Below are positions 1 to 45,397 of a stretch of DNA of 64,000 nucleotides, one piece after another (the first letter of the stretch is position 1; each line of letters begins with the position of its first letter). Made by a program: the position numbers and the translations under genes. This DNA comes from Opitutales bacterium (GTDB taxonomy: Bacteria; Verrucomicrobiota; Verrucomicrobiia; Opitutales; PNEW01). Where the stretch lies: contig CBDANS010000007.1 in NCBI GenBank assembly GCA_965197745.1, forward strand, positions 242,985 through 306,984, in the 5' to 3' direction. The notes under the pieces are model-generated. The model ran no database searches. It worked only from the letters and a program-made list of their open reading frames with translations, and was not told the origin of the DNA.

Positions 1-589
1 CTCCTGCCTCAGCCATGTCGGTATCGTAAAAATCGACATATATTTTCTCTTCCTGGTCACCCAGGGAGATTACTTGAGATACATTACCGAGACGAAGTAA
101 TTTATCGTGGACCTCTTCGGTGAGTTTTTTTAATTTTGCATAGGTGATATCTTTTCCTGAAACGGTAACAATTGTGCCGTAAACCTCACCATACTCGTCG
201 TTCAAAACAGGTTCCTGTACCCCTTCAGGCAAATCACTTTTTACCCGATCAATTTTGCGTTGTAACCGTGACCAGATAGGACGCATTTTCTGGTGGCGAT
301 CCGCTATTTTGACTAAAATTATCGAAGCATTTTTTCTTGAGATACTGTGCGCAAACTCCACTTCCGGCACTTCCCTTACCGCTTCTTCGATTTTCCGTGA
401 AACCAAGCTCTCGACTCTTTGAGCTGATGCACCGGGATATATAGTGACAATTAAGGTGTATCGAAAGACGATTGGTGGGTCTTCAGTACGCGGCAACTGC
501 ATAAAAGCAATAATTCCCCCTATAAATAAAAAAAATGAGGTCAAAAGAGTGAATCTTGCCTCTTTCAGCGCAATAACCGTAAGTTTCAT
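1..589 (-). CDS. RND (AcrB/ACR_tran family) efflux transporter permease, N-terminal fragment; gene runs off the left edge
   Basis: Absent from the ORF track because no stop lies in the window. The reverse-strand ATG at 589-587 translates to MKLTVIALKEARFTLLTSFFLFIGGIIAFMQLPRTEDPPIVFRYTLIVTIYPGASAQRVESLVSRKIEEAVREVPEVEF... This is the TM1 plus first periplasmic porter subdomain pattern typical of RND pumps. Confidence 0.7.
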   Translation of the reverse strand, partial: MKLTVIALKEARFTLLTSFFLFIGGIIAFMQLPRTEDPPIVFRYTLIVTIYPGASAQRVESLVSRKIEEAVREVPEVEFAHSISRKNASIILVKIADRHQKMRPIWSRLQRKIDRVKSDLPEGVQEPVLNDEYGEVYGTIVTVSGKDITYAKLKKLTEEVHDKLLRLGNVSQVISLGDQEEKIYVDFYDTDMAEAG

Positions 590-1350
590 ATAATTGAATC
601 CTGATGGAGAATAACCATAATTGATTTTATTTCTTTTGGTAGATTTCCGATCCTCGGTCAATCCAACTTATACACCTTATTATTGCTTTGTTTGTCAGAA
701 AGGCATCATTCTAACGGATTTTCTATCTTCTCCCTTTGCTTATTGACTGATAGCCTTATTTTTTCCAAAAATGGGCTTTAATTGTGTTTGGCAGTTATCT
801 TAAATGATAAATGGTCATAATATTCTTTAAAAATTAATAATGATTCTTATTGAATAATTATAAATTAGCTACATTAACGATGATCATCAGTAGAAATGTT
901 TACCGGATATGTATATCGATTTTGTTAACGGACAGAACCGATGGCGATTGTTGGTATCTAATTAACCTGCCAGAAATGGCATGAAATACCAGAGTGATTC
1001 TGCAGGTTCTTTTCGAGAGCTATAATAGTTTTCAGTATCCAATAAACGTCGAACTAAATTTTGAAAGATAAGTGAACAAACCCGGCCCGATGATCGTAAT
1101 TGATCACCTGCACAATCTTATTCCAAGAGACCTTCACTTGGATAGCTTTTTTATGATTAATAAAGCTGACACGAGAAGCATTTTGAGAACATCAATTCAC
1201 AGTTTCTAATCTGAATTTTTTATCATTTACCTAGACAAGAGAAGGGTCCAAAGCATTAAGATTAATTGAGAATTATAGTATGAAAATTGTGTATCGAATG
1301 CATGCTCTAGAGAAGAGCAGGCCTAGCTCTTTATTGTGGGAGGCAACCGA

Positions 1351-4300
1351 ATGATTAATCAAGGGAAGCGCCCCATAGCGATCATAGGAATAGGTTGCCG
1401 GTTTCCTGGTGGTGCAAAGAACTCAGCCTCTTTCTGGACCTCATTGCGCAATGGCCAGAATGCTATAGTCGAAGTTCCTGAGGATCGCTGGAATCTACAG
1501 CGATTTTATGATCCCAATCCTCAATTGCCGGGTAAAATGACAACCCGTTGGGGGGGGTTCCTCGATACCATTGATCAGTTTGATGCTCAATTCTTTGGAA
1601 TTTCGCCCCGCGAAGCATTGAGGATGGATCCTCAGCAGAGATGGCTGCTGGAAGTGGCATGGGAGGCACTCGAAGATGGAGGATTAGCTCCCGATCAAGT
1701 AGCAGGGTCACGCACCGGTGTTTTTGTCGGCATTTCAAGCAATGATTATGCGAATATCCAAATGAAAGGGCCCCAGGATGTTGATATGTATACCAACAGT
1801 GGGAGCACCCTGAGCATAGCTTCTGGCAGAATTTCTTATTTGTTTGATTTAAAGGGTCCAAGCCTGTCGGTTGATACCGCATGTTCATCGGCTCTTGTTG
1901 CCGTAAATCTTGCCTGCAATAGTATCTGGGATGGGCAGTGTGACACAGCTCTGGCAGGTGGAGTAAATGCACTGCTAACCCCTGATTCTTCTATAGGATT
2001 CAGCAAAGCGTCCATGCTGTCACCTGACGGCCGGTGTTACACCTTCGATGAACGGGCAAATGGTTATGTGCGTGGTGAAGGAGCGGGGTTAATCGTGCTC
2101 AAGCCGTTGGACGATGCACTGGAAGATGAAGATCCCATTTATGCCGTAATTCGCTCTAGCATTGTGAATCAAGATGGTCGCACGAGTTCAATGACGGTGC
2201 CGGGGCAATTTTCTCAGGAAGCTATGTTGAACGAAGCTTATGAACAAGCGGGAATCTCGCCGTCGAGAGTTTGTTACATAGAAGCGCATGGCACGGGAAC
2301 ACCGGTAGGGGACCCGATTGAAGTTCTTGCCTTAGGGAATATTTTGTCCAAGGGAAGAAAAGCTGAAGATAAATGTGTAATTGGGTCGGTTAAAACGAAT
2401 ATTGGTCATTTAGAATCTGCATCAGGTATAGCGGGTCTTATAAAAGCGGCACTGGTTCTAAAATATAAAGAGATTCCTCCTAATTTACATTTTGAAACCC
2501 CCAATCCCCATATTCCCTTTGAAAAACTTAAACTACGGGTTCCAACAAAGTTAGAGTCAATCCCGAAAGGATCAGACCCGGCGGTGGTCGCCGTTAACTC
2601 TTTTGGTTTTGGAGGCACTAATGCCCATGTGGTATTAGAAGAAGCGCCGGTCATCGCTAAAAGACGGAAAAAAATAAATAAAGATGATGCCCCCAGGCCC
2701 TACCTTGTCCCTCTATCGGGAAAAGGACAGCAGTCATTAAAAAAGAGTGCTGAGAATCTGGTTGATTTACTATCCGGACAATCGAATGGCACTGAAATAT
2801 TCCTGCCTGATCTTGCCCACACGGCAAGCTTGCGCAAGGGGCACCATGACCATCGATTAGCACTCGTTGCGTGTTCGGAAAATGAAGTTATAGTAAAGCT
2901 TAATGGGTATCTTTCCGAGAATAAGGTGAAAGGCCTTGTTGAAGGAAGAGCAAAAACTGAAAATCAAAAAGAAATTGTTTTTATATTCACCGGTCAGGGT
3001 CCGCAATGGTGGGCGATGGGGCGTGAACTTTTGGAAAAAGATCCGTTATTTCGTAAAAAGATAGAAAAGTGTGACAAACTGTTGAGCGAATACACCTCCT
3101 GGTCACTCGTTGAAGAATTATCCCGAGATGAAGCCAGTTCCAGGATAGACGATACATCCGTTGCACAACCGGCGATTTTCGCTTTACAAATAGCCTTAGC
3201 TGATTGGTGGAAGGCGAGGGGCGTGTCCCCCACCTGTGTTATCGGGCATAGTGTAGGCGAGGTTGCTGCCGCTTACTGTTCCGGAATCTATACCCTCAAC
3301 GATGCCATCAAGATAATATATCACCGCAGTCACTTACAAGCAACAACGCGCGGCTCGGGACGTATGGTAGTGGTGGCCATTTCACCGGATAAAGCTAAGG
3401 CCTTAATTCAGGGGTTTGAAGATCAAGTGACGATTTCCGCGATCAACAGTCCGGGCCTTGTGACTTTAGCCGGAGATACAAAAGTTTTGGAATCAATAAT
3501 CGAACCGCTTGAAAAAGATCAGGTATTTATCCGCTGGCTGGATGTCGATTATGCCTTCCATACAAATAAGATGGACCCTATTAAGGACGATTTACTTCAA
3601 GTCCTTTCAGAGATCAGACCACGCGCTTCAAAAATTCCCTATTACTCAACCGTCAGCGGAGAGGTTATGGACGGAAAGAAGTTAGACGCCAGCTATTGGT
3701 GGCGTAATATACGTGAAACCGTACTTTTTGGTCCGGCGATAGACGTTATTATTAGTAAGGATCACGACCTTTACCTGGAATTGGGCCCGCATCCTTCGCA
3801 TTCCAGTTCTGTCTTAGAATGTCTGGCCCACAAAGGGAAGAATGGATCGGTTTTGCCCTCGTTGCGACGAAAAGAGTCGGATCAGCAGACTTTGCTTGAA
3901 ACTCTAGCCACTTTATATACCCGGGGATATCCCATCCAATGGGATGCGCTCTATGGAAAGGAAGGACAATTTGTTCAATTGCCATCCTACCCCTGGAAGT
4001 CTGAACGACTATGGTTAGAATCACCCGTCTCTGAAGAGTACCGTTTTGGATCCATTGTGCATCCCCTCCTCGGGGAAAAAGTAAATGCTCCGAGCCCAAC
4101 ATGGGAATGCGAGCTTGATCCCCGCGCCTTACCCTACCTCGCCGATCACAGACTTCACGATTCCATGGTATTTCCAGGCGCCGCCTATGTTGAGATCGCG
4201 CTCGCGGCCCTTAATGAGCTATATCCCAATGAACCTTTTGTCATTGAAGATATCAAAATTCTTAAAGGGTTGTTCATGTCAGAAGACGGTGTCATTACCA

Positions 4301-7300
4301 TTCAAATGGTCTGTGATAAAACTGATGATTCCTTTAATATATTCAGTTCTACGGATACGACTGCTGGGGAATGGGAAATTCACGCCCAGGGACGCTATCA
4401 GAAATTAGCACCGCGTGATCCTGGCAATTTGGCTGTCGATCAAATTAAAGACGCGATGGAGGAGGAGATCGATCACGCCAAAATTTATTCAGATTTTGAT
4501 GATGTTGGATATCAGTTCGGTCCCTGCTTCAGAGAAGTACAAAAAATCTGGAGAAAAGATGGGGAATCGTTGGCTGAGATTCAGGTAACAGACGCGGTTT
4601 TAGAAGATATGGAGTCAAACTTCTTTCAACCTGCAGTTTTGGATGCCTGCTTTCAAAGTGGCAAGGAATCCAGAGTTAAGGATGAAAACAGAAAGGCACG
4701 CGACAATTTTTATATGCCTATCGCTCTGAAAAGAGTGAGGTTCTTTAAAAGTCCGACTCCCCGTCTTTGGTGTTATACGCAATTAGTGAGCGACGAAGGA
4801 GACCGCGTTGAATATGATCTTAAAGTCGCCAATGACGATGAATCTATCATCGCCGAGATCAAAGGCTTTTGCGTTCAGCGGGTAGATCAGTCTGAGACAA
4901 AAGCAGAAGAGGATCTCGAAAATTGCTATTATCAATTTCACTGGCATCCCTCATCGCTTCCCGGAGCGCGGCGTGACCCAATTGAACTCATAAGTCCCGA
5001 ACGGCTTATAGAAGTATTGGATCCTGAAATTATCCCTACCTACGATAAATATAATCTTGATGGTTACGTTAGTGATTTTATGCCTCAAATGGAAACTTTG
5101 AGCTTTAATTTCATTCTCACGGCTCTCCGAAAAATGGGATGGAAGCCGGCAATAGGTGATCGGGTATCGATTGACAGTTTAATCGAAGAATTGGGCATCA
5201 TGGAGCAACATCACCGCTTATTGCAGCATTCCATATTTGAGACATTGAAAAAAGAAGCGGTGATTCAAGCGACCGAGGATGGAGAATGGGAAGTAGCCCG
5301 TACCCCTGATTCATTAAATTTAGAAGATCTATGCAGTGCCCTAAGAAATAACTTTCCTCACTTATGGGCGGAAATGGATTTGCTCATAGATTGTGGGTAT
5401 GTTCTGGCAGAAGTGCTTACGGGTGAAAAAGATCCGCTCGATGTCATTTTTCCTGCCGGTGATCAGAAAAAAATTGAAAGTTTTTATAAGGATTCTTCTG
5501 ACTTTCAGGCCTACAACAGCTTGCTCCAAAAGGCCATCGACAAGCTTGCCAGTGAGCTGCCAGAAAAGGGCAAGCTGCGTATTCTGGAAATTGGAAGTGG
5601 CACCGGTTCTTTGACGGAAAGCTTGCTTGAAGTCTTATCCCCCGATCGTACCGAATATTACTTTACCGACATATCTCCCTTATTCATCGCATCGGCGAAA
5701 GAAAATTTTAAAAATTATGATTTTATAGAATATAGTATTCTCGATATTGAGAAACCACCGGGAGAGCAGAAATTTGATCTCCAATCATACGATTTGGTTT
5801 TAGCTACGAATGTCCTGCACGCCACTAAAGATTTAAAGCAAACACTCCGTCATATTAATCAGCTGATGACGGAAGAAGGCCTTTTGCTATTTCTCGAAGT
5901 TACGACTAAAAGGTTATTTTTGGATCTGGTTTTTGGTCTGCTTCCCGGCTGGTGGAGATATTCAGACGATGAATTGCGGACGACACATGCTTTGATTACT
6001 CGCCAGGAGTGGGAGGGGCTTCTTAATGAAAGTGGTTTTCGAAACGTAAATTCCTTTGTCAATACAATGGAGGAAAGCCACGCCAATCAATCCGTGTTCT
6101 TAGCCAACGCCTCCGAGCTTTTAACGGAGATGGATCGCAAAGAAGCCATCGATGAATCCTCAGATAAGAATAAAACCTGGTTGATTTTCGCTGATCAAAG
6201 CGGTTTTGCCGAGTCTCTAGTGAATCAAATGGAAGAGAGGGATAGCACATGTATCATGGTTACCCCGGGTGAATCCTTTGTCGAGGTGGGAGAACGCTGC
6301 TACCAGATTCATCCCGAACAATTGCAAGACATGGAGGATCTATTCACTCATCTCGAGCTTGATCCGAATGCCCTGCAAGGAATTATTCACATGTGGAGCC
6401 TTGACCATCCCACCGCTGATATAACAACACCTGAATCTCTCGAACTTGCTCAACAAACAGGATGCCTCAATGTTTTAAATCTCATTCAAACGCTTGTGAA
6501 ATCAGAGCCCGATCCCGCACCACGGGTTTGGATGATCACGCACGGCATGCAGTTGGTTTCCGATACGGATAGAAACGAACGCATTGCTTCAGCTCCTTTA
6601 ATCGGGCTCGCCCGGGTCGCCAATAATGAGCATTGGGATTATCACTGGACAGCTATTGATCTGGAATCTTCGAGCACTCCATTGGAATTAGAATTTTTAG
6701 TTAATGAGATCTGTTCTGCGGACGATGAATTGGAAATTGCTTACCGTGGAGGGGAGCGGTTTGTTAATCGAATAGAGAAAACGGTTAAGGATGAAATACC
6801 AGCAAGAACAAAAGATGCGGTAAGACGTGATGGGGTAATTCCTTACCGACTCGAGATACCGACTCCCGGAATTCTTAATAATTTACGATTAAATGAGACA
6901 GAGCGCAGCGCGCCAGGACCTCAGGAAATAGAAATAAAAGTTGCTGCGGTCGGCCTGAACTTCCGTGACGTGATGAAAGTTTTAGGCATGTACCCGGGTA
7001 ACAGCAGAGATTTGAAGTGGCTTGGGGACGAATGTTCGGGAACCGTTGTTTCTGTTGGTGAAGAAGTGAAAAATTTCCAGGTGGGTGATGAAGTTATAGG
7101 CATGATGGTTCCCTATTGTTGTCGATCTTACGCCATCGTGAATGAGGCACTTGTTTTTCACAAACCTTCCAAGCAGTCATTCGAAGAGGCCGCGACCCTG
7201 CCGATTGTTTTCCTCACCGCGCATTATACTTTGAACCATTTAGCCCACCTTCGTAAAGGTGAGAAAATATTAATACACGCGGGTGCAGGCGGTGTCGGCC

Positions 7301-10300
7301 AGGCTGCTATTCAAATGGCTAAGCACATCGGGGCCGAGATTTTTGCAACCGCAGGTTCACCTGAAAAACGTGAGTTTCTTAAAAGCCAGGGAATAGCCCA
7401 TGTCATGGACGACAGGACATTGGATTTTGCTGATGAAGTCATGGAAATTACTGAAGGGAAAGGTGTCGATGTCGTATTGAACCAATTGGCTGGTGACTTT
7501 ATCACGAAGAGTTTATCGGTGCTCGCTCCCTTTGGAAGGTTTCTGGAAATCGGGAAAGTAGATATCTATCAAAACACAAAAATTGGGCTCGAACCATTTA
7601 AGAAGAACCTGACCTATTTTGCCGTTGATCTTTCGAAACATATAGAAGAACGACCCGAGATAATTACCATGATGCTTCAAGAGTTATCGGTAATGTTTGA
7701 AAGAGAAGAGCTGAAGCCATTACCGTTTAAAGCATTTCCTATCACACAAGCAGTCGAGGCTTTCCGTTATTTTGCTCAATCGAAACACATCGGTAAAAAT
7801 GTACTCTCACTGCAAGAGGATTCTATCCTTGTTGGCTTGCCTTCCGAGCAAAAAACACTGTTCCGTGCTGATGGAACATACCTTATCACCGGTGGATTAG
7901 GGGGATTCGGTCTGGAAGTTGCCAAGTGGATGGTAAAATCAGGGGCGAAAAATTTAGTCCTCATGGGACGTTCGGGTGCATCGACCGATGATGCCATGGA
8001 AGCTTTACAGACGATGCGAAATAACGGCGCCCAGGTGGTAGTGGCCAAAGCCGATGTAGTCATCCATGACGATGTAGAACGCGTCTTAAACAAGATCGAT
8101 GAGGAAATGCCTCCTTTAAAGGGGGTCATTCATGCTGCTATGGTTTTGGATGATGGATTCCTTGTTCAGATAGACACTGAGAAATTCAAAAAGGTACTGC
8201 GTCCAAAAATGATAGGCGCCTGGCATTTACATCAGCTGACTCAGCAGATGCATATAGATTTCTTCGTGCTCTTTTCTTCTGCTTCGTCAATGCTTGGACC
8301 GAACGGACAGGGAAACTATGCTTCGGCCAATTTCTTCCTGGATGCGCTCGCCCATTATCGCAATGCCATGGGTCTTCATGCCCTCACGGTCAACTGGGGT
8401 GCATTATCCGAAGCCGGATACGTGGCCCGGAATGAAAACGTTGCCAAGTATCTGGATATTCTGGGCCTGGAAAGTTTCACTCCGCAGGAAGCACTCAGCA
8501 TTTTTGCTCAAATCCTGCCGAAAAATCCAGTTCAACTGGGAGCTTCCCATGTGAACTGGAAAACGATTTCAAAGATAAATCCACAGATGGGTAGTTCGAA
8601 GTTGTTCTCCCTGGTTATAAGCCAGGATGCACTTTCAGAAAAGACCGGAGCCCACGCCCATTCATTCAGGCCTCAACTTCTTGGCGCTGCGCCTGAAGAC
8701 CGGCATAAAATGGTAGAGAATTATATAAGTGAACAGGTAGCTCAAGTCTTTGGCACCTCAGCCGATAAAATTGATCGCGATACACCCCTGACCACGATTG
8801 GCCTCGATTCATTGATGGCCATAGAGTTGATGAACCGCCTGGAATCTAATTTAGGAATTAATTTGCCCATGGGTAAATTCCTGCAAGGGCCGAATATTTC
8901 TCAACTTGCCATTCCCGTTCTCGAATTACTGGTTAAGTCTGATTCCGGTTCGGATACAGCGAGTTCGCCTCGAAATGTAACGGCGGGAGAAGAATTGATG
9001 GAGTTTCCCTTATCCCAGGGACAACGAGCGCTCTGGTTTTTACACCGCCTCGCGCCAAGCAGCGCTGCCTACAACCTGGTCTTCAGTTCGCGCATTACTC
9101 CTTATGTCGACATTGACATTATGAAAAAGGCTTTTGCCCGTATCTTTCATTCCCATCCGATGCTCGACATTGTTATCTCCACGGTCGATGGAGAACCCAT
9201 GCAGACATTGCAAAAAGGACGCAGTGTCGATTTTCGAGAACACGATGCAACCCAACTTAGCGATGATGAACTTAAGGCATTGCTCGTAGAGCACGCGCAT
9301 AAACCCTTCAATCTTCAAACCGGCCCGGTTATCCGTTTGGAGCTGTTCCGTACTGCGACGGGGTCCCATGTGACGCAACTGGCTATGCACCACATTGTTT
9401 CCGATGCATGGTCTATCGTGATTGTTCTCAACGAGCTCATGGAAACTTACTTGGCCATCAAGGCCGGTCGTGAGCCTGACGTTCAACCCCCTGAATTCAG
9501 GTATTCAGACTATGTAAACTGGCAGAAAAACCTCTTGCAAAGTCCTGAAGCTGATCGTTTGGGCAGTTATTGGTATGAATATCTCGCAGACTCATCGATG
9601 GTCCTTGATTTACCCACGGACCACCCGCGTCCACCAGTCCAGTCTTTTAACGGCGCGACCTTTGGTTTCAAACTTGAAGAGGACCTTACGCAGAAGGTTT
9701 TGAAACTGGCTGAGGAGAAAAGAGTCACCCTTTATACTACCCTTCTGTCCGTATTTAATATTTTAATGCATCGTTATTGTAATCAAGAGGACATTATCAT
9801 CGGGAGTCCTTTATCCGGACGTATAAATAAAGAATTTCATCATATTACCGGTTATTTTATCAATCCCGTTGCGTTGCGTAGCAGAATGGGTGATGACCCC
9901 GCTTATTTTGATTACCTGGATCGTGTCTATCAATCGGTAATTGGCGCTTTAGAAAATCAGGATTATCCATTTCCACTTCTTGTCGATCGACTTAAAGTAA
10001 AGCGTGATCCCAGTCGATCGCCTATATTCCAGGCCAGCTTTTCTATGGAGAGAACACCTGGAGTTGATGATCAGGGCATAGCTGTATTTCTTATTGGTCA
10101 GGGCGGGCATAAATTTAATGCCGAAGACATGGTGATCGAGTCGATAGATCTTACTTTGCGCATGGCACAATTTGAGATTACACTCGTGGTGGAAGAAGCA
10201 GGGGGCAATATTTACGGCTGCTGGCAATATAACAGCGATCTGTTCGAGCCTGAAACGATTAGTCGTCTTAGCGGTTTTTATAAACAGTTGCTTAACGAAA

Positions 10301-13300
10301 TCGTATCTCATCCTGAGAAAAAGATTTCCGAGTTTAATTTGCTTTCAGCGGATGAAGAAAAACAGGAAATAGTAGACTGGAACGCAACTGCCTCTAAATA
10401 TCCTGAGCATTTATGCCTCCACCATATTATCTCTGACCAGTCAGCTAAAACACCCCATTCAACGGCGATCAGTTTCGATGGGGAATCCATGACTTATGAG
10501 GAATTGGAGAGAAAATCAAACGGCCTGGCCCTAGCATTACATCAGAAAGGTATCGGTCCGGACACCCCCGTTGGGCTCTATCATGAACGGTCCATGAACA
10601 TGGTTGTCGGGTTACTAGGTATACTTAAAGCTGGTGGTTGTTATGTGCCTCTGGATCCAGAATTCCCACCCCTCAGGCTGGAACAGATGCTCGACAATGC
10701 AAACCCATCTGTGGTGGTTACACAAAGCGAACTGGCGAGTGCCTTACCTCAAGGTCAATGGGAATCTATCTTTGTCGAAGAAGTGAGTGAGGCGGAGACA
10801 ACACCTCAAGTCGATGGCCTGAATCCCGATTCGCTTGCTTATATTATTTATACATCCGGGTCTACAGGCGTGCCAAAGGGTGTGGAAATTTCCCATCAGT
10901 CTCTGGTTAACTTTTTATATTCAATGCAGAGGGAGCCAGGTTTAAGTGATGAGGATAAACTTTTAGCAGTAACGACACTTTCTTTTGATATTTCAGGATT
11001 GGAACTCTACCTGCCACTGATTTCCGGTGCTCAGGTTATTCTGGCCTCTCGTAAAGTCGCAGCTGATGGCAGACAGCTGGCAGCTCTCATAAAAAGCACC
11101 AATCCCACCATTATACAGGCTACCCCGGCTACCTGGCAGATGTTACTGGATTCGGGCTGGTACGGAAAACAAAACCTTCGGATACTTTGTGGAGGTGAAC
11201 CCCTACCACCGGATTTGGCGGAGCATTTATGTGAAATGGGTGCGGAAGTTTGGAATCTTTATGGTCCGACCGAAACAACCATCTGGTCTACGGCGTCACA
11301 AATTGAAAAAGGTGATGATGTCGTCTCTATCGGCCGCCCCATCGCCAATACAAAAATATACATTTTAGATGAGGAAGAAAAACCCCTTCCCACGGGCTTT
11401 GCCGGCAATCTTTACATTGGCGGTGACGGTCTGGCCCGAGGCTATCACAAACAACCTGAGCTCACTAAGGAATCATTTGTTGAGTTGTCGTTAAATCAGC
11501 AGGAAACTGAGCGCGTATACAAAACCGGTGACTTAGCGCGCTATTTATCCGATGGCTCAATTGAATGCATTGGTCGCCGCGACTCTCAAATTAAACTGCG
11601 TGGTCACCGTATCGAGCTAAGTGAAATCGAAACGGTGCTTCGTGATCATCCCGCTGTAAAAAGTGCTTTGGTCCTGATGCGCAAAGATATGCCGGGAGGT
11701 CCGGGTATTGCCGCTTATATTATACCCATGGAAAATAACGACAGATTAGTTCCGGATCTGCGATCACACCTCACTGAGCGCTTGCCTCAATATATGCAGC
11801 CTTCTGCTTATATGGTCCTCGATGAATTCCCGCTCACCCCCAATAATAAAATTGACCGCAATCATCTCCCGCTTCCCTCTTTAAAGCGTTCCGATTTGCG
11901 AACAGATTATTTGGCACCCCAAACGCCGACTGAGAAGATTCTCTGTGATATATTAAATCAGGCTTTCAAGAGTGATAAGATTGGCATTCACGACAATTTC
12001 TTCGAGTTGGGTGGCGATTCACTAATGGCGGTGGAAATATTGTCGAGTATCACTTCCGCTTTTAACCGTGAATTACCGATTGAGGTCTTTTTGCGCAATC
12101 CTACGGTGGAAAGTCTGGGCTATTATTTTGAACTCACTCCCGAAAATATTGAGGTGAATTCCTCCCCCCATAAGAATGGAGATTCAAAGGTTAATAACAT
12201 TGATGACTTGTTTAAAAGCAGTTATCTGGATATCGAGCATGTAAATGGTAAAAATGGGGATCGCACTAAGTTCCCTGAGGTGGATGCCGTTGCTCTTGCT
12301 TACATCCCCGATGCTTTCCTCCCCCTCACGGGTCTTTCCAAAGATGAAATTTCACGTCAGTGGTTTCAACATCAGCCTTTTGTCAGCAATTACTACGAGA
12401 CTCCATTTGGAAAAATCGCTATCGTCATGTTACCGCGGTTAGGAGCTGAACTTTACAAAGATCAAGTGCCTCTCGGTGATAATATCTTAAGCTCCTTAAA
12501 ATTGGCTGCCGATATGGGGGCCAGTACCGTATCCCTGACCGGCCTCATCCCCTCGGCTACTGACTATGGAAGAAGTATCTCACACTGGATAAACGGCCAC
12601 GACAATTTACCCGCCATAACTACGGGGCACGCCACAACCACAGCAACGATCGTGAAAACGATTACCGGTATGCTTGAGCAGACAATGCGTGACTTCAGTG
12701 AGGAAAAAATTGCCATCGTCGGTTTGGGATCCATCGGCTATGCCACACTGCGACTTATGCTTGAAGTGATGCCGCATCCGGTTGAGCTTATCCTCTGTGA
12801 TCTTTACCGAAAAGCGGACATTCTTGAGAATATTAGAAGTGAACTGATTGAAAAGGTTGGCTTTAAAGGAGCTATCCGTGTGGTGACAACGCGAGGCCAA
12901 TTGCCCGACGCCATATACGATGCATCTTTTGTCCTTGGGGCCAGCAATGTTCCTGGTATCCTGGATATCAATCGCCTGCGTCCCGGCACCTTATTGGTAG
13001 ACGATTCATTTCCACCTTGTTTCCGTCTCACCGATGCGATCAGACGAATTGAAGAAGAGCAGGACATTCTCTTTACAACCGGTGGGTTGTTGCGCTGTTC
13101 GGAAGAAATTAAAGAGACTATATATCTGCCGGATGGAGCCGGTGAGTTATTCTCTAAATTAGGGGTTGATAAAGTGCAGAGACTGGCTGGACGCGACCCA
13201 CGCGAAATCACGGGATGTATCCTTTCCAGTCTCTTAACCGGACACGAACCGAATATTTCTACTACGATTGGACCAGTGGAAATCAAGGACTCACTCGCTC

Positions 13301-13434
13301 ACTATAAACTTCTCGAAAAGTTGGGACTGGAGTCAGCAAGACCGCAATGTGAAGGCTTCTTTATCGATGACGTAATTATCGAACGATTCAAGAAACGCAA
13401 CGGATCACATACCGTTCAGACTGAATCCGTTTGA
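1351..13434 (+). CDS. Hybrid type I polyketide synthase / nonribosomal peptide synthetase: KS-AT-DH-cMT-(psiKR)-ER-KR-ACP-C-A(Gly)-PCP-AAR-like reductase domain
   Basis: The 4032-aa track ORF starts at GTG 1336. I prefer ATG 1351, which is preceded by GGGAGG (1338-1343) with a 7-nt spacer. Motifs, in track numbering: KS DTACSS (C183), EAHGTGT (H318), NIGHLE (H358). AT GHSVGE (S639) and YAFH (739-742). DH HPLLG / [17 protein letters not shown] (H938) and DACFQ (D1103). cMT [8 protein letters not shown] (1417-1424). ER [11 protein letters not shown] (1981-). KR [8 protein letters not shown] (2185-), LDD (2271-2273), Y2328. ACP GLDSL (S2492). C MHHIVSD (2684-2690). A [12 protein letters not shown] (3172-) and NNKIDR (K3505). 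PCP GGDSL (S3562). Terminal Rossmann motif VGLGSIG (3795-3801). Confidence 0.95.
   Translation: [4027 protein letters not shown]
1366..2646 (+). other. Ketosynthase (KS) domain of the megasynthase
   Basis: The Cys-His-His triad is intact: DTACSS (C183, nt 1882-1884), [15 protein letters not shown]. It ends with [13 protein letters not shown]. Confidence 0.9.
2971..3921 (+). other. Acyltransferase (AT) domain, probably malonyl-specific
   Basis: [14 protein letters not shown] (S639), and YAFH at the specificity motif. The xAFH form leans malonyl (HAFH) rather than methylmalonyl (YASH). Confidence 0.85.
4048..4890 (+). other. Dehydratase (DH) domain
   Basis: HPLLG start, catalytic His in [17 protein letters not shown] (HxxxDxxxxP variant of HxxxGxxxxP), and a DxxxQ motif (LDACFQ). 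Confidence 0.8.
5353..6105 (+). other. C-methyltransferase (cMT) domain, SAM-dependent
   Basis: SAM motif I [14 protein letters not shown] (nt 5581-), followed by [12 protein letters not shown] and EEGLLLFLE motifs. It sits between DH and ER as in FAS and HR-PKS enzymes. Confidence 0.8.
6838..7815 (+). other. Enoylreductase (ER) domain, MDR family
   Basis: [15 protein letters not shown] start, NADPH motif [18 protein letters not shown], and C-terminal HIGKNVL. Confidence 0.85.
7861..8430 (+). other. Ketoreductase (KR) catalytic subdomain, B-type
   Basis: [19 protein letters not shown] Rossmann motif, LDD motif (HAAMVLDDG), catalytic Tyr in GQGNYASAN. Confidence 0.85.
8698..8925 (+). other. 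Acyl carrier protein (ACP) domain
   Basis: The phosphopantetheine attachment site [13 protein letters not shown] is verified at nt 8809-8811 (tca = S2492). Confidence 0.85.
8998..10320 (+). other. NRPS condensation (C) domain
   Basis: [12 protein letters not shown] start and active site [10 protein letters not shown] (HHxxxD). Confidence 0.85.
10393..11865 (+). other. NRPS adenylation (A) domain, predicted glycine-activating
   Basis: Core motifs [61 protein letters not shown]. Hand extraction of the 10-residue code against GrsA numbering gives D-I-L-Q-L-G-L-I-W-K. Confidence 0.8.
11923..12135 (+). other. Peptidyl carrier protein (PCP/T) domain
   Basis: [14 protein letters not shown], with Ser3562 verified at nt 12019-12021. 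Confidence 0.85.
12268..13431 (+). other. C-terminal Rossmann domain resembling long-chain acyl-ACP reductase (AAR); putative non-canonical reductive release domain
   Basis: [29 protein letters not shown] (GxGxxG, nt 12721-), [31 protein letters not shown], and [17 protein letters not shown] (Cys3961, nt 13216-13218). These follow, in order, the recalled AAR blocks [11 protein letters not shown] / [14 protein letters not shown] / [10 protein letters not shown]...VLIDGGYP / MFACFAEAMLLEFEG. There is no TE GxSxG motif and no SDR R-domain GxTGFLG motif. Confidence 0.55.
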
Positions 13435-13458: not shown

Positions 13459-14580
13459 GTGGAGTCGACATTGCTGCATCCGTTGTGCGGAAGCAATCTG
13501 ATTACATTTCTACGTGCTTTTGCCCGCCCGCGTCCTCTTTGTTGGCAAAAGCTGCCTGTGGGGTTTATCGCGGCAGCATCAGTTTTGGGACGATTTCCCT
13601 TTTATCAGTTCGAACGCTTATCACAAGCACGTGCTATTATACAAACCCCATTACCAGCGGAACCCATTTTTATCATTGGACACTGGCGTAGCGGCACGAC
13701 ACACCTGCACAATCTCATCAGTCAGGATTCACAATTTGGATCGATCAGTTTCCTTCAAACTGCATTGCCCTGGGACTTTATCGGCCAGGTCAATTTATCT
13801 CAGAAAATTCTCCGTAAGAAACTCCCCGACGATCGGGGGATGGACAAGGTAAAACTGACAATCGATTCCCCACAAGAAGAAGAGATGGCTCTGGGAAATA
13901 TGGGTCCACTATGTTATTATTACTGTTATTATTTTCCCCGGGAAATTGAAGAACACTTTAATCGGGCGGTCCTATTCAACGGAGTCTCATCAAGCGAAAT
14001 AAAAAACTTTGAAAATAATTACTGCTATCTTTTAAAAAAACTGACCCTGTTTCATGGAGATAAGAAAAAGCTGCTTTTAAAAAATCCCGCAAACACCGGT
14101 CGCATACGTTGGCTGCGGAGTATTTTTCCAGGCGCTAAGTTCATTCATATTCATCGCAATCCTTACACGGTCTATGCCTCAACCCTAAAGCATTTTAATA
14201 GAACCATGACGACTTTCGCCTGGCAGCCCTATGAGGGAATTGACTTTAATAAAATTACCCTGCGTCACTATCGCCTTCTCATGCAGCGTTACTTGGATGA
14301 GCGATCAACTATCCCCCCGGAAAACTTAATTGAGGTATCTATGGATGAAGTAGAGAAAGATGCGCCCGGGGTGATCGATAACATATACCGAAAATTTTCT
14401 TTGTCCAATCGGGATAGGGCGCTTGAAGCAATTAATTCATACTGCGAAGGACAGCGAAATTACCGTAAGAACAGTTATGTATTAAGCGGGGATCAAGTTG
14501 CTAATATAAATAAACACTGGGACTTTACGTTGAAAGAATATGATTACGGAATGCCGGGTGAAATAAAGGTGGAAAACTGA
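13459..14580 (+). CDS. Sulfotransferase family protein (PAPS-dependent, Sulfotransfer_3-like)
   Basis: 373 aa. 5'-PSB loop IFIIGHWRSGTTHLHNL and 3'-PB region FIHIHRNPYTVYAS. GTG start with AAGGA 8 nt upstream, only 24 nt after the megasynthase stop. Confidence 0.8.
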   Translation: MESTLLHPLCGSNLITFLRAFARPRPLCWQKLPVGFIAAASVLGRFPFYQFERLSQARAIIQTPLPAEPIFIIGHWRSGTTHLHNLISQDSQFGSISFLQTALPWDFIGQVNLSQKILRKKLPDDRGMDKVKLTIDSPQEEEMALGNMGPLCYYYCYYFPREIEEHFNRAVLFNGVSSSEIKNFENNYCYLLKKLTLFHGDKKKLLLKNPANTGRIRWLRSIFPGAKFIHIHRNPYTVYASTLKHFNRTMTTFAWQPYEGIDFNKITLRHYRLLMQRYLDERSTIPPENLIEVSMDEVEKDAPGVIDNIYRKFSLSNRDRALEAINSYCEGQRNYRKNSYVLSGDQVANINKHWDFTLKEYDYGMPGEIKVEN

Positions 14581-14582
14581 AT

Positions 14583-16565
14583 TTAGAGGCGATTCTTAAC
14601 CAGCATTTCGACTACTTTCGGGTCCGCAAGAGTCGTCGTATCTCCTATCTCATCCGGTGCATTCTCCGCAATTTTTCTTAGAATGCGACGCATGATCTTT
14701 CCCGAGCGGGTTTTCGGCAGACCGGGTGAGAACTGCAGTTTATCAGGGGTGGCAATGGGTCCAATCTCGGAACGCACATGTTTTACCAGTTCCTGTTTTA
14801 AGTCATCGCTCCCTTCCACCCCTCCGATGAGCGTGACAAAAGCATAGAGAGATTGACCTTTTATGTCGTGGGGCATTGGGGCGACCGCTGCTTCTGCTAC
14901 CATGGGATGACTGACTAAGGCGCTTTCAACTTCGGCTGTTCCAATCCGATGACCGGAGACATTGACAACATCATCGACGCGGCCCATCAGCCAGTAATCC
15001 CCATCACTATCAATACGGCAACCATCGCCGGTAAAGTAGAGATCATTAAAGGTGTTAAAATATGTATCGATAAAGCGATCATGATCACCCCAGGTGGTAC
15101 GCATTATCCCGGGCCAAGGTTTTTTGATACAGAGTTTACCGCCTTCATTGGGATTACATTCACTACCATCATCCCGCAATATTACAGGTTCGACTCCAAA
15201 GAAAGGGTGTGAAGCACTTCCCGGTTTTAAAACGTGAGCGCCCGGATAGGGGGTAATCAAGTGACCCCCTGTTTCCGTTTGCCACCAGGTATCGACAATG
15301 GGACAAGAGCCATGACCAATTTCCCGAAAATACCACATCCAGGCCTCTGGGTTGATCGGTTCTCCCACCGTCCCCAACAGCCGAAGTGAACTTAAATCAT
15401 ACTTAGCCGGCCATTCATTGCCCTGGGCGATCAATGCGCGAATCACTGTAGGGGCGGTGTAGAACACCGTTGCCTTGTATTTTTCACATACCTGCCAAAA
15501 ACGGCCTGGATCAGGATAAGTAGGGACCCCTTCGAACATGAGACTCGTCGAACCGTTGGCCAGCGGCCCGTAGACAATGTAACTATGTCCTGTCACCCAT
15601 CCAATGTCAGCTGAACACCAATATATGTCATCCTCGTGAATATCAAAAATATATTTATGCGTGAGACTGGTGTGTAGGAGGTAACCTGCCGTGGAATGAA
15701 CCACCCCTTTCGGTTTACCCGTTGAACCCGAGGTGTAGAGAATAAAGAGAATCGTTTCGGCACTTAAAGCCTCAGGCGGGCAGTCTTCGTTTACCTTGCT
15801 CATTTCATCGTGATACCACAGATCGCGACCTTCAATGAAATCACACGGTTCATCATTACGCTTAACCAAAATGACCTTTTCGATAGAGGGTGTATTTTCG
15901 AGAGCCTTATCAGAGATATTTTTCAGGAGGATAAATTTTCCTGAACGCAAAGCTACATTGGAGGTGATTAGTATTTTACAATCAGAATCATTAATACGAT
16001 CTGCCAGTGAATCCGCGCTGAAACCCCCGAAAACCACAGAGTGGATAGCGCCGATACGGGCACAACCAAGCATTACGATAGGCAACTCGACTATCATTGG
16101 CAGATATATCGCAACCCGGTCACCTTTTTTTATGCCATGTGCTTTTAGCACGTTGGCAAATTTACAAACTTCTTTATGTAATTCCTCGTAGGTAAGTGTC
16201 CGCGTGTCTTCTTCAGGTTCTCCCTGCCAGATCAGTGCCGGTTTTGTCCGTCGATCGGTTTTCAAGTGTCGATCAAGACAGTTTATGGTAATATTTATTT
16301 CACCATCTTCAAACCATGTATGCTCTATTTTACGTGCCTTGGAATCCCAGGTATATTTGCATGCGGTGCCAGGCGCTTTAATCCAGTCCAATGTCTCAGC
16401 CTGCTCTAACCAGAAAGCATCGGGATCATTTACCGAACGTTCATACATTTCGCAGTATTTTTGATTATCAATATGCGCTTTCTCCACGAATTGCTCGGAG
16501 GGGGGAAAGGTGCGCTCCTCGGTCATTAATGAATCGGTCGATATAGTCTGTTTTTCTTCTGCCAT
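14583..16565 (-). CDS. acs: Acetyl-CoA synthetase (acetate--CoA ligase)
   Basis: 660 aa with the typical Acs layout: ...YCEMYERSVNDPDAFW..., YTSGSTGKPKGV, WWQTETGG, and C-terminal LPKTRSGKIMRRILRKIA. Confidence 0.95.
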   Translation of the reverse strand: MAEEKQTISTDSLMTEERTFPPSEQFVEKAHIDNQKYCEMYERSVNDPDAFWLEQAETLDWIKAPGTACKYTWDSKARKIEHTWFEDGEINITINCLDRHLKTDRRTKPALIWQGEPEEDTRTLTYEELHKEVCKFANVLKAHGIKKGDRVAIYLPMIVELPIVMLGCARIGAIHSVVFGGFSADSLADRINDSDCKILITSNVALRSGKFILLKNISDKALENTPSIEKVILVKRNDEPCDFIEGRDLWYHDEMSKVNEDCPPEALSAETILFILYTSGSTGKPKGVVHSTAGYLLHTSLTHKYIFDIHEDDIYWCSADIGWVTGHSYIVYGPLANGSTSLMFEGVPTYPDPGRFWQVCEKYKATVFYTAPTVIRALIAQGNEWPAKYDLSSLRLLGTVGEPINPEAWMWYFREIGHGSCPIVDTWWQTETGGHLITPYPGAHVLKPGSASHPFFGVEPVILRDDGSECNPNEGGKLCIKKPWPGIMRTTWGDHDRFIDTYFNTFNDLYFTGDGCRIDSDGDYWLMGRVDDVVNVSGHRIGTAEVESALVSHPMVAEAAVAPMPHDIKGQSLYAFVTLIGGVEGSDDLKQELVKHVRSEIGPIATPDKLQFSPGLPKTRSGKIMRRILRKIAENAPDEIGDTTTLADPKVVEMLVKNRL

Positions 16566-21558: not shown

Positions 21559-22307
21559 CTATAATCCTGAACCCGATGTGTTATCGGGATCGTATATAAA
21601 GCCTACCCCGTGTATGGTACGGAATCCTTCCAGCGTATGGTCATTACGGGAATAACATTCGCGGATTTTGACAATATACTGATCAAGTGATCGACTGCGC
21701 ACATCGGCGTGAATACCCCAGACAGCGTGTATTAAACTTCGACGTGTTAGGACGGTACCTATATTTGAAGCTAAATAGGTAAGTATTCCTAATTCCTTGC
21801 GCCCTATCTTTTCGATCTTGCCATTGGGAAAAGCGATTTCAAGACGAACAGGATTAACATCGACATCACAAAACTGGAAAGTTTCCTGTGAGAGTGCCGC
21901 GTTTTTTGTAATATGGAAATCATGGGCTGTCTCAGCGCGACGCAGGACAGCATGGATGCGCGCGATAAGCTCGGGAAAACTGAATGGCTTGGTAATATAA
22001 TCATCGCCCCCCATGTCCAGCCCCTTTACCCGGTGGACCTCAGAATCATTGCCTGTTAAAAAATAACAGGGACTTGAATATTATTCTTCTTGAGCTCATC
22101 GAGGAGGGTAAATCCACTGGTGTCGGGTAAATTTACGTCCAGCAGGAGCAGATTCGCGAAATTCTGTTTGAGGAACCGCATGACATTTGAAGAGCGATGA
22201 TACACCTGAGTCATCATCCCAGCAGCTTCCAGCTGTTCGGAGATTAAAGCAGCCAGTTCCTTTTCGTCTTCGACAATTAGAATAAGTGGTTTTGGATTGG
22301 TGGCCAT
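21559..22307 (-). pseudogene. OmpR/PhoB-family response regulator split by a -1 frameshift in a homopolymer
   Basis: The receiver half (22056-22307) ends ...NIQVPVIF*. The remainder (21559-22014) contains [10 protein letters not shown] and a winged-helix domain. Reading through with one extra T in the T6 run (plus-strand A6 at 22058-22063) gives the continuous sequence [31 protein letters not shown]. Confidence 0.85.
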
Positions 22308-43363: not shown

Positions 43364-44614
43364 TTATTCGGGAGAAAACGCAGCGACTTTTATAAAGGCA
43401 TCATCAGCCATACAAATAGCCGCATCGATATCTGATTCCTGGTGAGCGGCGTTAACGAACCAATTGTGGTGGGGGTGAAAAAAAACACCGTTTTCCATAC
43501 AATATCCACTAAATTTTTGCATGCGCATTAAATAGGATTCTCCATAAAAACGCATGTATGGTAAAGCGGGCGGTCCAGAACATTTTACTTCAATTCCATG
43601 TTTTGCCGCAGCATTCTCCAGACCCTGCGTGAGACGTCTGCCCATATTCTCGAGGTGTTCAACAACCTTATCTCGCTTGAGAATATGAAGGCAGGTTAGA
43701 GCAGCCGCCATGGGCACTGCACTGAACCAATAGCTGCCTGTCATAAAAACCTTGCTTGCGGCCTGTTTAATATCTTCACGTCCGAGCGCGGCAGAAAGGG
43801 GGTAGCCGTTGGCAATCGCCTTACAGTAACAGGCAATGTCAGGAGTAAAATCAAATACCCGGTGTGAACCCCCGTGATGGAGGCGAAATCCAGCCCTTAT
43901 GTCGTCGAGAATTAATACGATGCTTTCACTTCTACAGGTATTCTCGATCTCCTTTAAATACCCCTCCGCCGGCAATAGGGAATCAGCAGCGCCAGGGTGA
44001 TGGTATGGAGTCGTAAATACAGCCGCAATTTGATCTTTGTGTTGTGTAATCAAATCGTGGAAGCTTTTTAAATCATTCCATTTATAGGTGTGGGTGTGAA
44101 CATGATCTTCCTCAATGGAACCGCTCGTTACCCGCTGGGAACACCAGGAGGCGGTGCCATGGTAAGCGCCCTCGACGGTCAGGACTTTTTTACGACCAGT
44201 ATATTCACGTGCGATTTTAGTAGCCCAGTGTATCATGTCAGATCCGTTTTTCCCAAAGACAGCCCAATCGGCAAAATCTATCGTATCTACAAGATATTCA
44301 GCTAATTCAACGAACCGTTCGCTGGGATGATTGAAACAATCCCCAGCTTTACTTTGTTCATCGGCTGCAGCGCATACTTCAGCGTTATTATGACCTAAAA
44401 TGATGGGGCCATAACTGCAGAGGAAATCAATGTATTCGCGTCCATCGATGTCCCAGTAACGACAGCCGTCAGCGCGAGCCGCAAAATAGGGCGCAATTCC
44501 TGGTACGGTGTTTGCGGGACTGTTATGACCGTAGATCCCGCCGGGAATGACTTGAACCGCGCGTTCAAATAGTTTTTGAGTGTTTTTTGCAAGCTTCGGC
44601 GCTTTAGTTTCCAT
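43364..44614 (-). CDS. Class III PLP-dependent aminotransferase (glutamate-1-semialdehyde aminomutase-like)
   Basis: 416 aa. N-terminal GGIYGHNS...YFAARADGCRYWDIDGREYIDFLCSYGPIILGH. Length and motif order fit the aminotransferase class III family. The substrate cannot be inferred. Confidence 0.75.
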   Translation of the reverse strand: METKAPKLAKNTQKLFERAVQVIPGGIYGHNSPANTVPGIAPYFAARADGCRYWDIDGREYIDFLCSYGPIILGHNNAEVCAAADEQSKAGDCFNHPSERFVELAEYLVDTIDFADWAVFGKNGSDMIHWATKIAREYTGRKKVLTVEGAYHGTASWCSQRVTSGSIEEDHVHTHTYKWNDLKSFHDLITQHKDQIAAVFTTPYHHPGAADSLLPAEGYLKEIENTCRSESIVLILDDIRAGFRLHHGGSHRVFDFTPDIACYCKAIANGYPLSAALGREDIKQAASKVFMTGSYWFSAVPMAAALTCLHILKRDKVVEHLENMGRRLTQGLENAAAKHGIEVKCSGPPALPYMRFYGESYLMRMQKFSGYCMENGVFFHPHHNWFVNAAHQESDIDAAICMADDAFIKVAAFSPE

Positions 44615-45389: not shown

Positions 45390-45397
45390 CGATCTAT

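Follow-up and report, generated by a model that had tools for sequence, protein, structure and literature searches.

Sequence analysis of a bacterial PKS-NRPS megasynthase with a TAD-family terminus and a sulfotransferase partner in Opitutales

We analyzed a 64,000-nucleotide stretch of DNA (the 64-kb window, or simply the window) from contig CBDANS010000007.1 of an Opitutales bacterium, which encodes a megasynthase combining one polyketide synthase (PKS) module with one nonribosomal peptide synthetase (NRPS) module. A preliminary description had seen in this protein the hallmark of fungal PKS-NRPS enzymes. Judging from sequence comparisons, its fungal resemblance appears to be limited to the domain order, its affinities being bacterial, and its terminus belongs to the TAD family (putative terminal amidation domain) and not to the fungal-type reductase (R) domains. 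The synthase appears to form a small operon with a sulfotransferase gene, with a candidate RND exporter upstream. The most likely product of this system is a sulfated, methyl-branched lipid derived from N-acyl-glycine that leaves the enzyme either reduced or with a primary amide. Three things had been overlooked in the preliminary description: the specificity for glycine, the conserved sulfotransferase partner and the RND transporter. The annotated features are as follows.

1351..13434, + strand: synthase open reading frame (ORF), 4,027 aa, KS-AT-DH-cMT-psiKR-ER-KR-ACP-C-A(Gly)-T-TAD, the Gly specificity being predicted
1369..2496, + strand: ketosynthase (KS), residues 7-382; Pfam ketoacyl-synt 2.8e-100, Ketoacyl-synt_C 1.4e-39
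2977..3924, + strand: acyltransferase (AT), residues 543-858; Pfam Acyl_transf_1 1.3e-72; malonyl type
4060..4896, + strand: dehydratase (DH), residues 904-1182; Pfam PKS_DH_N, PS-DH
5044..6048, + strand: C-methyltransferase (cMT), residues 1232-1566; Pfam HTH_51, Methyltransf_12, Methyltransf_23
6178..6510, + strand: psiKR (structural pseudo-KR subdomain), residues 1610-1720; Pfam Beta-ketacyl_N 5.1e-13
6853..7809, + strand: enoylreductase (ER), residues 1835-2153; Pfam ADH_N, ADH_zinc_N, ADH_zinc_N_2
7873..8409, + strand: ketoreductase (KR), residues 2175-2353; Pfam KR 1.5e-68
8722..8910, + strand: acyl carrier protein (ACP), residues 2458-2520; GLDSL (Ser2487); Pfam PP-binding, ACP_SdgA_C
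9001..10365, + strand: condensation (C) domain, residues 2551-3005; HHIVSD; Pfam Condensation 2.1e-102
10435..11850, + strand: adenylation (A) domain, residues 3029-3500; Pfam AMP-binding, AMP-binding_C; TIGR01733
11932..12126, + strand: peptidyl carrier (T) domain; GGDSL at 3554 (Ser3557); second PP-binding stretch
12268..13410, + strand: TAD-family terminal domain, residues 3640-4020; phmmer, AlphaFold2 (AF2) model, Foldseek
13459..14580, + strand: 3'-phosphoadenosine 5'-phosphosulfate (PAPS)-dependent sulfotransferase, 373 aa; Pfam Sulfotransfer_3 1.4e-29
2..667, - strand: RND (AcrB/AcrD/AcrF family) transporter, N-terminal 222 codons; Pfam ACR_tran E 1.5e-21

The synthase and its sulfotransferase partner

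The reading frame of the synthase, located by an ORF search, opens on the + strand at GTG 1336 or ATG 1351 and has its stop at 13434. ATG 1351 lies 7 nt downstream from a GGAGG at 1339-1343, which is a normal spacing, and a start there gives the protein of 4,027 aa. An identical protein was found in a public collection, on long-read metagenome contigs of up to 3.1 Mb. An Rfam scan of the 5' region gave no matches, and promoter-like sites were no more frequent in it than in shuffled sequence.

Both the ORF and the Pfam matches agree with the preliminary description in that a complete, C-methylating and fully reducing PKS module is fused to a single NRPS module. Every domain that had been claimed, from the KS to the second PP-binding stretch, scores far over the Pfam gathering cut-offs, cMT and ER included, both of which have their catalytic residues. 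The motifs quoted earlier were each found in place by a motif scan. The KS has the catalytic set Cys178 (DTACSS), His313 and His353, with the motifs HGTGT and NIGH; the AT has GHSVG (Ser634) and YAFH at 734-737, which bears out the malonyl-type assignment and is kept as YAFH or FAFH throughout the synthase family; and the DH has HRLHDSMVFP (His933), YQFGP and DACFQ (Asp1098). Within the cMT, an HTH_51 lid (1232-1310) is followed by the methyltransferase proper (1391-1566), and the S-adenosylmethionine (SAM) motif LEIGSGTG, the motif NVLHAT and a conserved Glu are kept across the family. The NADPH motif of the ER, HAGAGGVG, is likewise intact and conserved, and the KR carries GGLGGFG, LDD at 2266-2268 (B-type) and YASAN (Tyr2323). 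Domain order, scores and catalytic residues thus define a fully reducing, C-methylating type I PKS module, and the C domain with HHxxxD, the A domain with a glycine-type code and the T domain with GGxS define an NRPS elongation module. As had been proposed, all PKS domains are apparently active, since their motifs are intact and are kept in the homologues. The KS begins about 7 residues from the N-terminus, close to where it had been placed; in the homologues whose N-terminus was read it begins about 5 to 32 residues in, apart from one with a called start falling inside the KS. Pfam detects no Thioesterase domain in the protein.

The ten-residue code of the A domain, extracted by a script anchored on the A4, A5 and A10 motifs, is DILQLGLIWK, which we take to be the published glycine code (Stachelhaus et al. 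1999). All members of the family keep it as DILQ[LF]GL[IV]WK, and it indicates an A domain with predicted specificity for glycine. A match to the glycine module of LgrA (residues 1228-1795) was dropped as support for this assignment, because both A domains of LgrA match alike (279.0 and 283.6 bits); LgrA also differs from the window in code residues, and the similarity is not specific to its Gly versus its Val module.

The sulfotransferase gene starts 24 nt past the synthase stop codon. Its product scores 104.4 bits against Sulfotransfer_3 (cut-off 27) and has the RSGTT 5'-phosphosulfate-binding (5'-PSB) loop for PAPS, which is invariant. The closest folds to its AF2 model, which has a mean predicted local distance difference test (pLDDT) score of 90.3, are STF1 (2ZQ5) and STF9 (2Z6V); the sulfotransferase (ST) domains of CurM and OLS come next, and retinol dehydratase is also listed. 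The gene adjoins the synthase in 16 of the 18 homologous loci (numbered L) with a readable neighborhood: it lies directly downstream in L004-L012, L014-L017, L085 and L093, and is a divergent neighbor in L092. It was not found beside the synthase in the other two, L013 and L018; at L013, genes for a MiaB-like radical SAM protein and an SNF transporter directly follow the synthase (L013:11240-14501). When the sulfotransferase itself was the query, homologues at 47-48% identity were found adjoining a C-A-T-TAD locus (L093) and a synthase of about 4,000 aa that extends beyond the end of its locus (L092). More distant homologues (41-43% identity; L090:8001-12257 and L091:8001-10321), from Verrucomicrobiota (Verrucomicrobiales), adjoin either a fatty-acid desaturase, a WelO5-like iron/2-oxoglutarate enzyme and a CMAS-type methyltransferase, or LpxB. 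This hints at lipid acceptors for the sulfotransferase and suggests that L090 and L091 belong to other sulfated-lipid pathways.

The terminal domain

The "reductive terminus" of the preliminary description holds to the extent that the protein ends in a Rossmann-type NAD-binding domain of about 390 residues (3640-4020), but its family is TAD. Neither the whole protein nor its C-terminal 424 aa gave a match to NAD_binding_4, the family of the fungal R and Dieckmann domains, and the domain itself matches no Pfam family, reductase models included. NCBIfam gave weak matches only, to the N-terminus of PigE (4.1e-12) and to AcACP_reductase. Against PDB chains, phmmer matched the domain to 9E4S/9E4X (E 7.6e-89), whose titles name the TAD of the carmabin biosynthetic pathway, that is, of CarI. 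An AF2 model of the domain (pLDDT 92.5) superposes in Foldseek on 9E4S with a TM-score (TM) of 0.92, a root-mean-square deviation of 1.6 Å and 40% identity; the next-best fold is that of the cyanobacterial acyl-ACP reductase (AAR) 6JZU, with TM 0.64 and 16% identity. The synthase has TTG at 3757-3759, GLGSIG at 3791-3796, the NAD-selecting Asp3817, VDDSFPP at 3883-3889 and the invariant Cys3956, and it has Phe at the position of CarI Gly2172. Sequence and fold similarity, the place after a T domain at the C-terminus and the presence of all defining residues together make the terminus a TAD-family member.

CarI, VatR and HcaD end in a TAD, and their products have a primary amide at the C-terminus (Rankin et al., bioRxiv 10.1101/2024.10.28.620694). 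The TAD of CarI binds NAD(H) and not NADP(H), with NADH bound slightly better than NAD+; its NAD-selecting Asp is D2102, and its invariant Cys (C2238) is the counterpart of the catalytic Cys of AAR (bioRxiv 10.1101/2024.10.28.620694). These three proteins share with the window synthase a C-A-T module followed by an AAR-like, NAD(H)-binding domain of about 400 aa with the same Cys, TTG, GxGxxG, Asp and DDSxP. They differ in that their TAD ends a long assembly line, whereas ours follows one PKS and one NRPS module within a single polypeptide, with glycine as the predicted final residue. The conserved sulfotransferase is a further difference, since Rankin et al. saw no consistent partner of TADs. 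In the same study, verrucomicrobial TADs are treated only as a cluster of a sequence similarity network, the mostly verrucomicrobial cluster 3, which has Tyr for Asp2170; the window TAD has Asp despite its Verrucomicrobiota host. VDDSFP is found in the window and in all Opitutales copies, and two Verrucomicrobiales TADs (L018:10001-11137 and L019:1720-2832) read VDYSFP, the Tyr variant, so that the Asp and Tyr forms coexist in one architecture.

The domain resembles AAR, PigE and TamH in its two-lobed fold with a catalytic Cys beside the nicotinamide, and PigE and TamH are thioester reductases (PMC8341465, PMC9594044). It is nevertheless not an AAR: identity is 16%, the match to the AAR model TIGR04058 reaches 20.1 bits where 449.7 would be required, and an Asp sits at the NADP-excluding position; AAR is NADP(H)-selective, whereas the TAD is NAD(H)-selective and carrier-fused. 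The TAD family is small: a search of 1.84 billion representative proteins, clustered at 50% identity, gives 478 clusters with E <= 1e-30. At L021, L022, L033, L068 and L076, same-strand A-T or C-A-T modules follow the TAD-coding stretch (~10001-11140), so that the TAD may not always be the final domain of its assembly line, as judged from same-strand coding stretches.

Affinities and distribution of the synthase

To place the domains we ranked bit scores against all PDB chains, which is a ranking of similarity and not a phylogeny. With the KS as query, CurL is the best single-KS match (524.6 bits), followed by PikA1 (495.3) and MAS (442.4), whereas the eukaryotic LovB (360.1), PsoA (343.0) and animal fatty acid synthase (FAS; ~298) score lower; the top entry, 7ZMA, was set aside because its score sums two KS domains. 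For the cMT, the CurJ C-MT (5THY) reaches 259.3 bits (E 4.9e-76), against 140.9 for the fungal PksCT and 104.5 for LovB. The ER-KR stretch is closest to MAS (374.0), the polyketide synthase extender module 2 in 3SLK (357.4) and the CurK ER (307.3), while LovB and PsoA align to its KR half only, with no alignment to the ER stretch. For the C domain, Txo2 (223.3) and Txo1 (219.0) stand far above PsoA (56.1). KS homologues at 60-63% identity are frequent in many bacterial phyla, and several of them are preceded by an ACP, which makes these members of multimodular lines.

The preliminary description based its fungal comparison on the order KS-AT-DH-cMT-ER-KR-ACP and on the terminus. The order is as it described, but it is the general order of type I PKS and FAS modules and not specifically fungal; the terminus is a TAD and not a short-chain dehydrogenase/reductase (SDR)-type R domain or a Dieckmann cyclase (DKC); and the domain affinities are bacterial. 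The hallmark is therefore not supported. TenS, the fusarin synthase and PsoA (9X29) do resemble the window synthase in being one polypeptide with an N-terminal KS and the order KS-AT-DH-cMT-(ER)-KR-ACP-C-A-T-X, and differ from it in ending in an SDR-type R domain or a Dieckmann cyclase. In fungal PKS-NRPS enzymes the ER is usually degenerate and is complemented by a trans-acting ER partner. In the synthase the ER is intact, and Pfam finds no gene for a trans-acting ER in the 64-kb window, so that the synthase does not copy the fungal enzymes; terminal domain, domain affinities and ER state all set it apart. Literature found under the notation "DH-cMT-ER-KR" is nearly all fungal, with no bacterial precedent under that notation.

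Among bacterial enzymes, those for polycyclic tetramate macrolactams (PTM; HSAF and ikarugamycin type) have the order KS-AT-DH-KR-ACP-C-A(Orn)-T-TE, with a terminal thioesterase (TE), lack cMT and ER and activate ornithine. They share with our synthase a bacterial single-module PKS fused to a single-module NRPS and an N-terminal KS, and our synthase stands outside their group by its cMT and ER, its glycine-type code and its TAD end. The closest functional analogy is probably the synthesis of methyl-branched lipids in mycobacteria. MAS and Pks2 are also single fully reducing modules with an N-terminal KS, without a loader, making methyl-branched chains; MAS is the top structural match of the ER-KR stretch and Pks2 the top NCBIfam match. 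The sulfolipid-1 logic of Pks2 offers a functional parallel, with a PKS, an RND/MmpL exporter and an Stf-type sulfotransferase. Unlike in MAS-like enzymes, where the branches come from methylmalonyl-CoA and the chain goes to a PapA acyltransferase, the branches in our synthase would be SAM-derived, through the cMT acting on malonyl units, and the chain would go to an in-cis NRPS module. Nor is it an equivalog of the MAS-like enzymes: the Pks2 model NF041183 gives 1376.2 bits against a cut-off of 2400, and the AT has YAFH, not YASH.

Homologues were searched with the TAD, KS and sulfotransferase as queries, and the loci were examined by tblastn with each domain of the window. When an alignment of TADs was run against the GTDB species representatives, the closest relatives fell in Opitutales metagenome-assembled genomes (MAGs), "Candidatus Moanabacter" and Verrucomicrobiales. 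Co-linear homologues in other genomes of the Planctomycetes-Verrucomicrobia-Chlamydiae (PVC) group, for which the preliminary description had proposed a search, do exist: at least 16 are found in Opitutales and Verrucomicrobiales (L004-L009, L011-L018, L085 and L093 in full), and the shorter loci L010 and L092 have the same architecture as far as their sequence reaches. More than 15 species-level homologues, with domain identities between 36 and 88%, all keep the catalytic motifs of AT, DH, cMT, ER, KR, ACP, C, T and TAD, which at such divergence argues for a function of each domain. L013 and L016 stand out by their C domains, with just 41-42% identity to the C domain of the window, versus 57-82% in the other co-linear loci; their A code is still of the glycine type. 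Among the 80 best TAD loci, the form with cMT and C-A(Gly)-T-TAD occurs in Verrucomicrobiota only, and all homologous loci found stem from records of metagenomes or uncultured organisms. Two Opitutales MAGs share synteny with the window at 74% nucleotide identity over ~22 kb, reaching into housekeeping genes, and the GC content of the synthase (0.44-0.47) is near that of its surroundings; the synthase therefore appears native.

Relatives with the same N-terminal KS and a single module have other ends. L086 ends in C-A-T-TE, its sequence stopping short of the next gene downstream; at L088, C-A-T is followed by an Asp/Arg hydroxylase gene; and L089 has ACP-TAD without an NRPS module. At this last locus, a Rieske oxygenase gene lies downstream of the PKS-TAD gene. 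An ACP leading directly into a TAD, with no NRPS module, is also seen at L054, L058, L062, L066, L067, L071, L075 and L082, besides L089:10049-18811. These enzymes have the form KS-AT-DH-(MT)-ER-KR-ACP-TAD, with the TAD mostly at ~10001-11100, and belong to Gemmataceae, Casimicrobiaceae and one verrucomicrobial contig; by their domain content they would release a plain fatty chain, nearer to the situation of AAR. At L087:10001-17038, on a contig covered 3x, a KS with 70% identity is followed by a fragmented DH, MT and ER, which is either a decayed copy or the result of assembly errors; a sulfatase gene lies immediately upstream.

As seen in the six-frame translation, the RND gene is divergent from the synthase and is cut off by the left edge of the window. 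L085 has a full ACR_tran gene in the same divergent position and L086 an MMPL-like gene upstream; no RND/MMPL gene was seen upstream in L087-L089. On this basis the RND gene is a candidate exporter. Pfam finds no loading module or fatty acyl-AMP ligase (FAAL) in the 64-kb window, in line with the preliminary description, nor were a phosphopantetheinyl transferase, an aminotransferase partner or another PKS/NRPS gene found there, and the remainder of the window consists of housekeeping genes. The acetyl-CoA-synthetase-like gene at 14583-16565 (-), a conceivable loader, was rejected: it has the ACAS_N domain of a housekeeping Acs, is convergent, and is syntenic in the closest relatives only. Two other places drew our attention. 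At 21559-22014 (-) and just upstream, the window's own contig (L001) carries a response regulator in two pieces, a Trans_reg_C ORF of 151 aa and a Response_reg ORF of 83 aa; on L002 and L003, two contigs with 99.5% identity, the gene is called as a single 237-residue product that contains both domains. The break is due to a frameshift, which is either genuine or an error of the long-read assembly. At 43364-46510 (-), a class-III aminotransferase gene, an unassigned 261-aa ORF and a gene for an MGDG-synthase-like glycosyltransferase stand in a row and may form a small operon for a glycolipid or aminolipid, with no relation to the synthase.

Predicted product and its alternatives

We suggest the following route to the product. 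The KS would take its primer directly from fatty-acid metabolism, as an acyl-CoA or acyl-ACP, or the module would iterate; one or more malonyl units would be added, each alpha-methylated from SAM and fully reduced. The ACP would pass the chain to the C domain, which would N-acylate the glycine bound to the T domain. The acyl-glycyl thioester would then move to Cys3956 of the TAD and be released, as an N-acylglycinamide if the precedent of carmabin, vatiamide and hectoramide applies; the Stf1/Stf9-like sulfotransferase would sulfate a hydroxyl of the product, and the RND pump would export it to the envelope or the medium. By analogy with the TAD family we favor release as a primary amide, to which we give not quite an even chance.

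Several points weigh against this proposal. No release by a TAD has ever been shown in vitro, and the link to amides is a correlation drawn from three near-identical cyanobacterial TADs, to which the window TAD is only 40% identical. A saturated N-acylglycinamide would offer no hydroxyl to the sulfotransferase, so that an extra one is needed, with the primer or a programmed skip of the DH step as conceivable sources. The glycine assignment rests on the published code, the similarity to LgrA not being specific to its glycine module; the evidence for iterative use of the module on a fatty acyl primer, namely the N-terminal KS, the missing loader and the absence of another PKS gene from the window, is circumstantial; and the RND gene is linked to the synthase in just 2-3 of ~6 loci with readable upstream DNA.

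The need for a hydroxyl would be met if the TAD instead reduced the acyl-glycyl thioester with NADH to an N-acyl-aminoacetaldehyde, which the TAD itself or a cellular dehydrogenase would reduce further to an N-acylethanolamine, the sulfotransferase then forming the O-sulfate. Such a release, which we hold to be possible but rather unlikely, has a parallel in linear gramicidin, where the R domain of LgrD and LgrE reduce the terminal glycine to ethanolamine. It is in keeping with the superposition of the TAD fold and catalytic Cys on AAR (TM 0.64), with the weak NCBIfam matches to the PigE N-terminus (4.1e-12) and AcACP_reductase, with PigE and TamH being thioester reductases (PMC8341465, PMC9594044) and with the slight preference of the CarI TAD for NADH over NAD+ (bioRxiv 10.1101/2024.10.28.620694). 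It would also supply an obvious acceptor for the conserved sulfotransferase, which, in the loci examined, stands beside the C-A(Gly)-T-TAD form only and not beside the PKS-TAD of L089. However, TAD-ended pathways with known products all yield amides, never aldehydes or alcohols, and no reduction was seen in vitro with NADH; the window TAD also keeps the Asp beside the nicotinamide N1, which was argued to favor NAD+ (bioRxiv 10.1101/2024.10.28.620694), and no enzyme in the operon can be assigned to the aldehyde-reducing step.

Two further readings were considered. The sulfotransferase could activate a group for elimination, as do the STs of CurM and OLS and retinol dehydratase, turning for example a primary amide into a nitrile or a hydroxyl into an alkene or enamide and leaving no stable sulfate ester. 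The amide model would then no longer require a free hydroxyl, and the CurM and OLS STs are the nearest folds after Stf1/Stf9, with retinol dehydratase also among the folds listed; but the similarity to the CurM ST is low (TM 0.39), a TE or other elimination partner is absent, and PAPS-driven dehydration of an amide is without precedent, which makes elimination very unlikely. We give even less credence, hardly any, to a fungal-style iterative PKS-NRPS, which would build the whole methylated polyketide from malonyl units and release an aminoacyl-polyketide reductively or by Dieckmann cyclization, with tetramate or pyridone chemistry. The domain order agrees with it except at the terminus, as do the single module, the N-terminal KS and the missing loader, and iteration is compatible with all our results. 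Yet Pfam finds no SDR-type R or DKC domain, every domain is nearest to bacterial enzymes with LovB and PsoA far lower, the ER is intact where those two enzymes failed to align, and a sulfotransferase partner has no role in such chemistry. A sulfated N-acyl-glycine-derived lipid, whether amidated or reduced, thus accounts best for the synthase and its partner.

The preliminary description knew of no characterized bacterial product from this architecture, and our limited literature searches agree: they found no description of the cassette or of its product, nor of a PKS with a sulfotransferase in Opitutales. The obstacle named for the TAD is the lack of authentic substrates, no release activity having been reconstituted in vitro (Rankin et al., bioRxiv 10.1101/2024.10.28.620694). 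The window places this rare family in the simplest context found, with a predicted N-acyl-glycyl thioester substrate that is easily synthesized. If the proposal is true, such a simple acyl-glycyl substrate could reveal whether the chemistry of the TAD is amidation or reduction.

The case also corrects a tempting misreading, in that a fungal-looking domain order is not evidence of fungal kinship or of fungal-type chemistry. Mycobacteria make methyl-branched lipids by combining a MAS-like PKS with an MmpL exporter and an Stf sulfotransferase, and these bacteria would rebuild that logic from a cMT that uses SAM and a glycine module in cis. We know of no natural product or special lipid linked to such genes in Opitutales, an abundant, largely uncultured marine order in which this two-gene cassette, or three-gene cassette if the exporter is counted, is conserved. 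It is conceivable, if doubtful at present, that the pair makes an undescribed class of sulfated, SAM-methyl-branched, N-acyl-glycine-derived lipid, with an N-acylethanolamine O-sulfate or a sulfated acyl-glycinamide as candidates, and that marine Opitutales share it across the lineage as a lipid of their envelope or surface.

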